The notes under the pieces are model-generated. The model was not told the DNA's origin and did no database searches. It was given only the letters and a program-made list of their open reading frames with translations. From positions 32,001-96,000 of IMG/VR virus record IMGVR_UViG_3300009149_000012: DNA of 64,000 nt, one strand, 5' to 3'. A program made the translations under genes and the position numbers. Source of the stretch: a virus. Positions 29,751 to 31,548 of the stretch are shown here, piece after piece (position 1 is the stretch's first letter; the number at the start of each line of letters is the position of its first letter).

Positions 29751-31088
29751 AGCTATATCTACACCGCTCGCAGTCAAAGCCGGTCGATTTGCAATGTTTC
29801 GAGCGGCGTTGATGTCTCGATGCAACCGAAGTCCACATTTCGGGCACGTTCCAATCGGACCATGCTCGAAAGCCCAAGCTTCCTTATCCAAATGCCCGCA
29901 CGCAGAGCATTTCTGAGAAGTGTAGGACGGGTCTACTTCGCCCACACGTTCAAGGTACCTGCCTAGCACTATTGTCGCCGTAAGCCGCATGGAGGAAGTC
30001 ATCCGGCTCCCCATCTGACCGATACGCTGGCTAAGCTTTTCGATCTTGATGCTTTCAACCCGTTCGAGCGGCTTAAGCACCTCATTGTAGATGAGGTGAC
30101 GAACATGGCGGGTCATCTTCTGCTGTATACGGCCAACCGGAAGCCCTTTTGCTTGCCGACCCGCAATTTGCTCGGCGTAGAGCTTCTCCCGGGGGTTTCG
30201 GACAAGCGTGCCGTCGCTCATGGCAGCCAAGACCACCAAACCAACATCGATACCCATGACAGAGCCAGGGATCGGGTCGGGCAACTTGCGAATGGGTACC
30301 TCTTGCTTGATCGAGGCCCACCAACCATCGGCTTGTCGACGGATGCTCACCCCTTCCAAAACGCGTCCCCAAGGGACGTCTCCCGGCAAGCGCCCCTTGA
30401 TCTTCAGACCATTGAACATTACCTGGCAATCGTAGAAATCCGGGTTCTTACCCCTCGCACCGAACGAACCCGTCTTGAAACACATGCCGCTTCGGGTTTG
30501 GAGCGGCATGTGGTCGCTCTTCCGACGAAACTTCTTTCGCCTCTGACCCTTAGCACGACCACTTCCATCCGCTGCCTTGCCGCTTTTGAAGTAGTTCTTG
30601 ACGAGCGCTTGGTATGTCCCAGCCCGAACCTTCACTTCCTCATCGTGATGGAAAAGGTGGGACTGAAAGAACTGGTAGTCATACTTGAACCCGAACCGCT
30701 CGATTTCTTTACTGAACGGAAGACGAAGCTTGCAGCCGGGGACCTTCTTTGTCGCCTCATGGACCTTCTGGTTCCACTCCAAGTACATCTGGATGTTTTC
30801 ATCCTTTGTCTCTTGGGCTTCTTTCGGGGTCATCCCGTCGTAGTCGACCGGGGGAAAGCACGGTACCCCTCGCTTTGTCCGGTACCCTGGATCAATCACG
30901 AGCCCCGCTTTGACAGCGTAGATCTTTTGGACTTCGATCAATTCCTCGATTTGCTTGACCATCCAATTCCAGCAACGACGCAAGTCGTCTTCGATGAGCG
31001 TTAGCTTCCGCTCGGTTTCCTTGTCCGGGTACAGTCGGATCATGAAGCCCCGAACTTCGTTCCCAGGTTGACAGACGAACTTTTTCAT
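29745..31088 (-). CDS. compact TnpB/Cas12-like RNA-guided RuvC nuclease (447 aa), CRISPR-associated
   Basis: N-terminal IRLYP...R.CWN; RuvC-I MGIDVG, RuvC-II IKIEKL, YTSQKCSACG..CPKCG zinc ribbon, RuvC-III HRDINAARNI. Confidence 0.9.
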   Translation of the reverse strand: MKKFVCQPGNEVRGFMIRLYPDKETERKLTLIEDDLRRCWNWMVKQIEELIEVQKIYAVKAGLVIDPGYRTKRGVPCFPPVDYDGMTPKEAQETKDENIQMYLEWNQKVHEATKKVPGCKLRLPFSKEIERFGFKYDYQFFQSHLFHHDEEVKVRAGTYQALVKNYFKSGKAADGSGRAKGQRRKKFRRKSDHMPLQTRSGMCFKTGSFGARGKNPDFYDCQVMFNGLKIKGRLPGDVPWGRVLEGVSIRRQADGWWASIKQEVPIRKLPDPIPGSVMGIDVGLVVLAAMSDGTLVRNPREKLYAEQIAGRQAKGLPVGRIQQKMTRHVRHLIYNEVLKPLERVESIKIEKLSQRIGQMGSRMTSSMRLTATIVLGRYLERVGEVDPSYTSQKCSACGHLDKEAWAFEHGPIGTCPKCGLRLHRDINAARNIANRPALTASGVDIAA

Positions 31089-31099
31089 ATTGTGTTCCC

Positions 31100-31234
31100 T
31101 TAGTTTCAGGGGATTCGATGTGACGTCGTTGCAGGTATCGGACTGCGCTCCGTTGGTTTTAGGGCCGTGGTTCCCGTGGCCTTCCTCAGATTGGGCACCG
31201 TTGCAGGTATACCGGACTGCACTCCGTGAGTTGC
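31100..31234 (-). CRISPR. second mini array upstream of the effector: degenerate repeat, 36-nt spacer, full repeat, 17-nt spacer, repeat remnant
   Basis: Full repeat at 31128-31163; degenerate repeat from 31200 with a 2-nt insertion; remnant TTAGTTTCAGG at 31100-31110. Confidence 0.75.
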
Positions 31235-31248
31235 TCTACACCGGCAAC

Positions 31249-31548
31249 TCAAAACTCGATCTCGTCATCCTCGTAGTCGATGCGATCCCATGTGGTGATG
31301 GGCTTGGGGGCTGCCTTGGGAGCCAGGGCTGCCTTGGGGGCTGCCTTAGCTCGACCCGTGCGTGCAACGCATGACGTGGGGCCCCAATACACTTCGCCAG
31401 CAACCTTGATCCCCATGCGGGGGGTGCCGTTGAAGCGGTCCGTGCCAGTCCAGATGCACTGACCAACGGTTCCGACCGGGGGAAGCCCCTTGCTTGAGGC
31501 CGTGACCTGGATTTTCGTGCCCTTGCGGACCTGGGTGTCGGTAGCCAT
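31249..31548 (-). CDS. KOW/SH3-like small protein
   Basis: RKGTKIQV...VGTVGQCIWTG...RMGIK...YWGPTSCV; PITTWDRID. Confidence 0.75.
   Translation of the reverse strand: MATDTQVRKGTKIQVTASSKGLPPVGTVGQCIWTGTDRFNGTPRMGIKVAGEVYWGPTSCVARTGRAKAAPKAALAPKAAPKPITTWDRIDYEDDEIEF

Follow-up and report, generated by a model that had tools for sequence, protein, structure and literature searches.

In an uncultured huge phage, the gene for a compact type V-like nuclease is directly preceded by a leader built from CRISPR repeats, and this leader is predicted to form the 5′ end of the nuclease's own messenger RNA. The locus lies in a 64,000-nt window that covers bases 32001–96000 of the 148,881-nt IMG/VR virus record IMGVR_UViG_3300009149_000012. 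Because a record of this length is rated 31% complete by CheckV, the phage must be very large. Coordinates below are window positions unless another record is named; the leader, the effector gene, the non-coding stretch and repeats downstream of it, the genes flanking the cassette and the homing endonuclease gene are all on the minus strand. The effector gene (29745–31088) encodes a 447-residue TnpB/Cas12f-like protein, and its leader contains two units that retain the conserved RNA structure of the repeat, here called the handle. We propose that the effector binds or processes the handles in its own leader, so that its synthesis would fall with free effector and rise with competing handles; we hold this reading tentatively, at somewhat less than an even chance.

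The leader is assembled from repeats

The leader, read from 31250 to 31086, opens with a 7-bp inverted repeat (31228–31250) formed by GAGTTGC (31250–31244) and GCAACTC (31234–31228), whose 9-nt loop is CGGTGTAGA (31243–31235). The initial annotation of this stretch had described a hairpin with this motif in its loop, and it is indeed present at 31250–31228. Its predicted energy is −11.8 kcal/mol (z = −1.96), and its 5′ arm overlaps the stop codon of an upstream 99-residue gene. The first repeat, R1, follows; its 5′ part is degenerate (about 69% like the repeat consensus), and its 3′ part, the handle (31200–31227), carries a 2-nt loop insertion, keeps both pseudoknot helices and scores 35.6 bits (E = 1.7e-5) in the covariance model described below. 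Spacer S1 (31164–31199) has the 36 nt usual for spacers in the family. R2 (31128–31163; 44.6 bits) is a complete 36-nt repeat in which a single U-to-C change opens the outer pair of helix B. It lies 40 nt from the effector ATG, so that a conserved-handle unit adjoins the effector gene, as in CreR-type elements.

After R2 come a 17-nt spacer, S2 (GACGTCACATCGAATCC, 31111–31127), and a 15-nt stump of a third repeat (CCTGAAACTAAGGGA, 31096–31110), which is identical to the 5′ end of the repeat at 13 of 15 positions and lacks the pseudoknot. Within the stump, a C-to-G change creates the Shine–Dalgarno sequence AAGGGA, 7 nt (31095–31089) ahead of the ATG at 31088. The coordinates thus bear out the order first proposed for the leader, namely repeat, 36-nt spacer, repeat, 17-nt spacer and a repeat remnant that holds the effector's Shine–Dalgarno sequence. 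The start codon itself is supported by the first 15 residues of the protein, which are conserved among homologs and include the almost invariant G9, E11, R13 and G14.

A TnpB-sized, type V-like effector

As in type V systems, the effector is a single TnpB-derived RuvC protein with a complete catalytic triad (D281, E350 and D425), to which a zinc ribbon is added that matches the Pfam family Cas12f1-like_TNB (E = 1.1e-15). Matches to OrfB_IS605 and HTH_OrfB are both weak, and the N terminus is HTH_OrfB_IS605-like. All three triad residues are invariant in an alignment of 40 effector homologs. About 100 homologs at 40–62% identity occur in metagenomes, where a scan for relatives returned mostly distant TnpBs; searches of IMG/VR with protein patterns recovered no close relatives. 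An AlphaFold2 model of the effector (mean predicted local distance difference test score of 90.3) finds its closest counterparts in the Protein Data Bank (PDB) in CnCas12f1, ISFba1 TnpB and ISDra2 TnpB, with template modeling scores of about 0.5, at most 20% identity and a fold-match probability of 1.0. The top sequence matches in the PDB are likewise TnpB and Cas12f (E ~1e-7). Judged by its sequence and predicted fold, the effector is a TnpB-sized type V-like nuclease that belongs to none of the solved subtypes.

Compensatory changes mark the handle as a selected RNA structure

We aligned 31 repeat copies from 12 phage loci, built a covariance model for the handle and used it to scan the genome. 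The conserved part of the repeat is its 3′ 26 nt, an H-type pseudoknot in which helix A is CGGA/UCCG and helix B is UGCAG/CUGCA, with the 5′ strand of helix B in the loop of helix A. Across the 31 copies, 98.6% of cells are paired, and compensatory changes occur in seven of the nine pairs. The covariation score of 0.418 compares with 0.129 in shuffles (0/500 as high) and with at most 0.086 when the partners are slid. The compensatory changes indicate that the handle is a selected RNA structure. No Rfam family matched within 29300–31400. The covariance model detects six handle copies in the phage genome, five around the effector gene and one solitary (R6); a scan for pseudoknots by structure alone had matched the sequence about as often as it matched shuffles and had passed over the real handles.

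Nine homologous loci (L008, L010, L011, L012, L013, L114, L115, L118 and L150) contain regular arrays of 36-nt repeats and ~36-nt spacers, with three to at least ten units. These arrays start at, or overlap, the effector stop codon, and there is no room for a trans-activating CRISPR RNA (tracrRNA) between gene and array. On these comparisons the locus apparently belongs to a miniature (~450 residues), phage-restricted, tracrRNA-free CRISPR family with a 26-nt pseudoknot handle; none of the sources that we consulted names this TnpB-sized, phage-restricted family. The exact 23-nt core of the handle recurs in three further viral contigs whose contexts are otherwise unrelated, and a search of 185,579 prokaryote genomes, for this one pattern, returned no copy.

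Two of the homologous loci showed additional elements. In L011, two inverted copies of a palindromic hairpin (L011:2427–2459 and L011:4252–4284; 29/29 identical) flank the cassette of effector and array, the downstream copy standing directly after the terminal repeat. In L006, the strand opposite the effector gene carries, immediately upstream of that gene, a weak handle-like sequence (L006:2934–2967, minus strand; 16.7 bits, E = 0.42) of a repeat type unlike that of the L006 array.

A promoter-like motif precedes the first handle

The loop motif CGGTGTAGA occurs four times in the window, always on the minus strand, against 0.25 copies expected, and none of 100 shuffles reached four. Two copies, at 28748–28740 and 32016–32008, are each separated by exactly 7 nt from the ATG that follows (28732 and 32000, respectively), as had been noted. 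The fourth copy (29758–29766), overlooked at first, falls in the last codons of the effector gene, where it is predicted to drive the downstream non-coding stretch and repeats R3–R4. Across the whole 149-kb record, the motif GGTGTAGA has 12 copies on the minus strand and one on the plus strand. In nine of the 12 cases, an open reading frame (ORF) starts no more than 35 nt farther on, four times with its ATG exactly 7 nt from the motif; the exceptions are a copy at genome position 102278, the copy before R1 and the copy before the non-coding stretch and R3. In L008, L010 and L118, CGGTGTA likewise occurs no more than 30 nt upstream of the effector homolog, and in L118 it stands 10–13 nt ahead of most called gene starts. 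The motif looks like a promoter-type signal of this phage group, with moderate statistical support, and its 7-nt spacing to ATGs would yield leaderless mRNAs.

Applied to the leader, the same 7-nt spacing puts the transcription start at 31227, as originally suggested, and comparison supports this position: 31227 is the first base of the 26-nt handle, and in L010 the same 9-mer lies 6 nt before a handle. A start at or next to 31227 is therefore credible, and it would explain why only the 5′ part of R1 has decayed. Between R2 and the effector ATG we found no promoter-like site, so the effector mRNA should carry R1 and R2 whichever promoter is used, in keeping with the proposal that the effector transcript includes the repeats.

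We regard as improbable an account in which the motif is not a promoter. The leader would then be reached by read-through transcription from upstream, and the hairpin would be a processing or stabilizing 3′ end of the upstream message, an account that is compatible with the other alternatives considered below. The hairpin ends exactly at the first base of the handle, and it has no U-tract and is thus not an intrinsic terminator; in L010, a different inverted repeat flanks the motif, and a fixed 7-nt spacing to ATGs could equally be a translation signal. Set against these points, the distance from motif to ATG ranges from 7 to 35 nt here and is ~10–13 nt in L118, which fits a promoter better than a ribosome-binding site, and two motif copies precede non-coding repeat units rather than genes.

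Leader handles recur in relatives

Among 15 loci with readable upstream sequence, three (this window, L010 and L013) have a leader handle, and the handle is structurally intact in all three. In L010, whose effector shares 53% protein identity, the same 9-mer is followed after 6 nt by a 5′-truncated handle upstream of the effector gene. Here the 9-mer sits in the same relative place in a different inverted repeat, GTTTA/TAAAC, and the leader handle is identical to the handle of the window phage and departs from the variant that L010 uses in its array. The effector of L013 shares 30% identity; its ATG comes 20 nt after a solitary handle, which differs from the array repeat of that locus by a compensatory change in helix A.

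A 47-nt direct near-duplication, which takes in the end of the upstream gene and a promoter-like CGGTGTA, flanks the motif-plus-handle insert of L010 (L010:2350–2500). As a consequence, the guide of this handle corresponds to the stretch immediately upstream of the handle's own promoter, with six mismatches in the first 37 positions. The match of the L010 leader guide to the sequence just upstream of its motif scores 45, a value that none of 500 shuffles attained. It could represent a self-target or a duplication made on insertion.

Downstream repeats and flanking genes

The effector gene is followed by a non-coding stretch (29583–29744) that leads to a second group of repeats (29408–29582): R3 (29582–29547), a 25-nt spacer S3, R4 (29521–29486), a 42-nt spacer S4 and R5 (29443–29408), after which 8 nt precede the ATG of a 207-residue gene. 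The repeats of the window number only five and form two groups; their spacers measure 36, 17, 25 and 42 nt, and the last of these, S4, duplicates the class A promoter of the phage. Class A promoter-like elements consist of GTTGATCG, ~17 nt, CCTTAGAGGG, 3 nt and an ATG, and they would yield leaderless mRNAs; copies lie at window positions 29444–29485 (S4), 31549–31583 and 2600–2641 and at genome positions 19786, 20382, 116056, 136662 and 146458.

The last ~75 nt of the non-coding stretch are conserved in a subgroup of homologs, in an alignment of the window sequence (29583–29744) with L006:4393–4490, L007:2298–2361, L116:3959–4030 and L151:2148–2246. This element consists of a core, GACCGCTCGCAAAGCGTGTTGCAAGTG, and a variable hairpin, and it stands ahead of the first repeat in these loci. 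At an equal distance from the first repeat, the remaining loci have the gene's own NAARNIA-coding 3′ end with the core CCGCTCGCAA. The element could be a relic, or part, of a scaffold resembling omega RNA.

The genes on either side of the cassette (28776–29399 and 31249–31548) are partial paralogs with 53% identity over 55 residues, and each has a class A promoter copy, which suggests that the cassette arrived by recombination with duplication. Farther upstream, the small genes that precede the cassette are separated from a major capsid gene (33074–33955) by a gene for a LAGLIDADG homing endonuclease with a C-terminal helix-turn-helix (32040–33017).

This setting bears on whether the leader repeats control the effector at all. 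They may be a neutral scar, the remnant of a longer array fused to the effector gene by recombination and deletion between repeats, which could yield crRNAs and exert no control; we consider this unlikely, although it deserves real weight. S2 (17 nt) and S3 (25 nt) are shorter than the ~36 nt of the family, the third repeat is cut to 15 nt, and most homologs lack leader repeats. Recombination is also suggested by the position of the cassette between two paralogous genes, each with its class A promoter copy, and a 47-nt duplication flanks the L010 insert. A scar would not be expected to keep both pseudoknot helices in both leader handles or to reshape the stump into a good Shine–Dalgarno sequence. 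Nor does it readily account for L010, which retains the motif-plus-handle unit at 53% protein identity despite a different array repeat variant, or for L013, which retains a structurally compensated handle 20 nt from the ATG.

Solitary handles stand before other genes

Solitary handles also lie 2–30 nt upstream of the start codons of other genes, namely at R5 and R6 and in L118, G004, G001 and G002, with one copy each in G004 and G001. R6 (genome 131041–131074, equivalent to L143:15041–15074; minus strand) is outside the window, just downstream of a tRNA gene cluster and 15 nt before a 138-residue gene. Because it is directly followed by GTGTAGA, 8 nt and an ATG, the guide portion of R6 would correspond to the promoter-like motif and start codon of the next gene. 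L118 contains two ~100-nt modules (L118:4740–4862 and L118:5518–5642), each with a GCAAC-TAGCC-GGTGTA motif, ~27 nt, a full repeat, 1–9 nt, a repeat stump and an ATG that occupies the place of the next handle's ACG. The two copies differ by a 1-nt indel, so the module must be non-coding; its stumps, which abut ATGs after solitary handles, are comparable to the stump in the effector leader.

Two further cases differ in their relation to an effector. L151 encodes an effector homolog at 54% identity and has no array; in L151:2148–2298, the lone handle shows a compensatory change in helix B and stands 15 nt ahead of the ATG of a glycosyltransferase gene, a layout that resembles TnpB with a guide taken from its flank. 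G002 (IMGVR_UViG_3300025087_000094), a 51-kb phage genome rated 90% complete, has five dispersed solitary handles (L131:4001–4034 and L132:8260–8293, 11968–12001, 12963–12996 and 14251–14284). All are intergenic, on one strand and just before gene starts, one of them that of the major head protein gene, and we found no effector homolog in this genome. The G002 handles could be decoys, scars of conflict with effector-bearing phages or signs of a handle role that is independent of Cas12.

The recurrence of these units raises the prospect, doubtful in our view, that each solitary or terminal handle makes a guide from the adjoining phage sequence in the manner of TnpB, the effector leader being one such unit. 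On this account, such a guide would attack rival phages with the same gene start minus the handle, resulting in exclusion or in copying of the handle or cassette by repair. The L151 layout fits this account, as do the copies 2–30 nt before gene starts, the occurrence of the identical 23-nt core in three unrelated viral contigs and in none of the prokaryote genomes, and the TnpB-like fold of the effector. In addition, the report on Cas12r–CRISPR from Thermus Lalka phages describes a crRNA made of a 26-nt repeat-derived handle and an 18-nt guide, for which one repeat suffices, so that working guides arise from a single repeat (bioRxiv 10.64898/2026.04.20.719267). Arguing the other way, the related sequences that we compared contain no handle-free target allele, and R2 is flanked by the leader of the effector itself, a sequence that would be missing from a rival lacking the cassette.

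A broader role is conceivable, although we give it a low probability. The 26-nt handle would be a portable module of 5′ untranslated regions (UTRs) in an RNA-guided system confined to phages, set between a phage promoter and a gene, the effector gene among them, and the miniature Cas12 would bind, cut or load guides from the mRNAs that carry it and so control phage genes. Gene starts could then become guides against rival phages, and copies in effector-less phages would be decoys or scars of conflict.

The spacers have no discernible targets

We searched for spacer targets as exact or near-exact matches. S1, S2 and S2 extended by the stump gave nothing above chance in all 148,881 nt of the record. 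Neither spacer, also when extended, resembles the 157 nt upstream on either strand, where shuffles score as well in 150–387 of 500 trials. The best genome match of S2, 14 of 17 positions, lies in apparent coding sequence and was equaled by shuffled queries in 4 of 12 trials. In IMG/VR we found no exact match to S1 (36-mer or 20-mer) or S2, and the S1 20-mer had no match in the 185,579 prokaryote genomes. Against cultured phages, blastn returned matches only at E values of at least 1 and no match for the whole leader. The comparison of 43 spacers of relatives with the sequences of related phages yielded no foreign matches and no protospacers. Spacers matching foreign protospacers beside a protospacer-adjacent motif, which characterize type V systems, were therefore found neither for S1 and S2 nor for the spacers of relatives, and the search for spacer targets called for by the initial annotation ended without a candidate in phage or public collections.

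The spacer comparison picked up only an inverted palindromic element flanking the L011 cassette and a local duplication in G003, of which we read the former as a repeated hairpin and not as a guide–target pair. A 19-nt complementarity between the R2/S2 junction and effector codons 37–42 is no better than the other chance pairs listed.

The same searches speak to the idea that the 17-nt spacer supports binding without cleavage. That idea finds no support, because S2 has no promoter-proximal target, only a chance-level best match in the genome and no public match. In addition, 17 nt nearly reaches the full 18-nt guide length of Cas12r, so that the shortness of S2 is no sign of a non-cutting role; that 18-nt guide gave protection against phage (bioRxiv 10.64898/2026.04.20.719267).

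CreR mini-arrays autorepress cas12a, and in Moraxella the mechanism needs a target in the cas12a promoter. We judge it very improbable that the leader works in the style of CreR or tracr-L, with an R2–S2 RNA that directs the effector to a partial match in the effector promoter, where transcription would be blocked without cutting. The anatomy is like that of Moraxella creR in that, immediately upstream of the effector gene, an intact handle is followed by a short pseudo-spacer and then by a second repeat that is degenerate, and the L010 leader guide is a near-copy of the sequence just upstream of its promoter motif. Here, by contrast, S1 and S2 show no significant similarity to the promoter region, as the comparison with the upstream 157 nt indicates, and the best match of S2 in the genome is at chance level, although a weak site matched by the seed alone may have escaped these searches.

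A model for autoregulation by the effector's own message

In the model that we favor, the stretch would be the 5′ leader of the effector mRNA and at the same time a small working CRISPR array. The CGGTGTAGA promoter would start RNA at, or within one base of, the first nucleotide of the 26-nt R1 handle, and a single transcript would contain crRNA 1 (R1 and S1), crRNA 2 (R2 and S2), the stump as ribosome-binding site and the effector ORF. If the effector recognizes the handle, as we propose, newly made protein should bind its own leader. Protein bound at R2 would sit 27–40 nt upstream of the Shine–Dalgarno sequence and ATG, and 3′ maturation of crRNA 2, ~18–20 nt after the handle, would fall at the junction of S2 and stump and cut the message just ahead of the ribosome-binding site. 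The outcome would be negative feedback on effector synthesis, relieved by other handles competing for the protein; as a second outcome, the effector would load guides from the RNA that encodes it.

Several observations weigh against this model. ORF starts occur within 35 nt in 46% of the background, so the 9 of 12 motif copies that precede one are a mild enrichment, and the 12:1 strand bias of the motif partly follows that of the genes (126 of 179 ORFs, or 70%, are on the minus strand). Taken in full, the leader shows no unusual degree of structure (z = +0.73). No leader handle is present in 12 of the 15 homologous loci, which makes the feature optional. The shortened S2 and the stump could be mere deletion scars. 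Moreover, solitary handles precede unrelated genes, even in the effector-less G002; the leader arrangement is thus not specific to the effector but one case of a wider pattern of handles before gene starts, and it could stem from some general property of the handle, or from its mobility, and not from control of the effector.

Relation to known systems

Repeat-derived RNAs at the 5′ end of transcripts have a parallel in the type II-C arrays of Neisseria and Campylobacter, where promoters are embedded in the repeats and crRNA 5′ ends are made by transcription initiation. In both cases a promoter element, here a putative one, overlaps the 5′ part of a repeat, and here, too, RNA would start at the 5′ end of the mature crRNA. 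Unlike in type II-C, the motif is on R1 only (in L010, on the solitary leader handle), and the putative promoter is a phage-specific one.

RNA anti-CRISPRs and solitary repeat units are known from viruses, the latter being mentioned also in the literature on repeats upstream of cas12a. The solitary handles in phage intergenic regions are similar, and G002 combines solitary repeats with the absence of an effector. In the window phage, unlike in RNA anti-CRISPRs, the cognate effector is phage-borne, so the element does not occur without an effector; because the handles in the window accompany the effector, a decoy role is unlikely for the leader.

Repeat-like units occur upstream of cas12a in about a third of V-A loci. 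Such standalone repeats, CreR and the tracr-L of type II-A all place a repeat-derived unit directly upstream of a single effector gene, as is the case here, and the expected feedback would likewise sense competition of crRNAs for the protein, as in CreR and tracr-L. Those RNAs act on DNA by partial pairing with the effector promoter, for which we found no target here. As the units lie inside the effector's mRNA leader, any control would instead act on RNA. The effector is also of a different, TnpB-sized family.

With TnpB and the omega RNA of IS200/IS605 elements, the effector shares its size, fold, HTH_OrfB_IS605-like N terminus and TNB zinc ribbon and the placement of RNA and mRNA on one transcript; in addition, some of the loci keep ~75 nt of conserved non-coding sequence ahead of their first repeat. 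The guide units in the window are at the 5′ end of the mRNA and not, as in TnpB, at its 3′ end; relatives have true arrays with variable 36-nt spacers; and neither tnpA nor transposon ends were noticed in the loci examined, for which no systematic search was made. The mRNA of TnpB is known to be processed by the protein itself (PMC10278001).

An analogous system in phages is Cas12r. Both systems are phage-borne compact type V systems with a 26-nt handle and with neither tracrRNA nor adaptation genes. By description, and not by protein-sequence comparison, they are set apart by the 564 residues, 29-bp repeats and thermophilic hosts of Cas12r, compared with 447 residues and 36-nt pseudoknot repeats here. 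In the portion of the Cas12r report available, no repeats are mentioned in the leader, which is where they occur in this phage (bioRxiv 10.64898/2026.04.20.719267).

Standalone repeats upstream of cas12a, autorepression by CreR and tracr-L, and the processing of its own mRNA by TnpB are already known. What appears to be new is the placement of guide units inside the effector's own 5′ UTR, the reuse of a repeat stump as a putative ribosome-binding site and a predicted promoter positioned on the first base of a handle. The same comparisons point to a miniature, phage-only type V-like family with a pseudoknot handle and dispersed solitary handles, which also appears to be new.

The repeat-derived RNAs known to tune the expression of Cas proteins in types I, II and V-A act on promoter DNA, whereas here the guide units would belong to the effector message itself. 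With ~450 residues, a 26-nt pseudoknot handle and probably a crRNA as its only RNA, the family is also of practical interest. If the effector or other phage genes are indeed regulated through a handle in the 5′ UTR, the arrangement would be a natural counterpart of the mRNA-processing sites engineered for Cas12a and Csy4, and it would form an intermediate step that links Cas12 to TnpB and the latter's processing of its own message.

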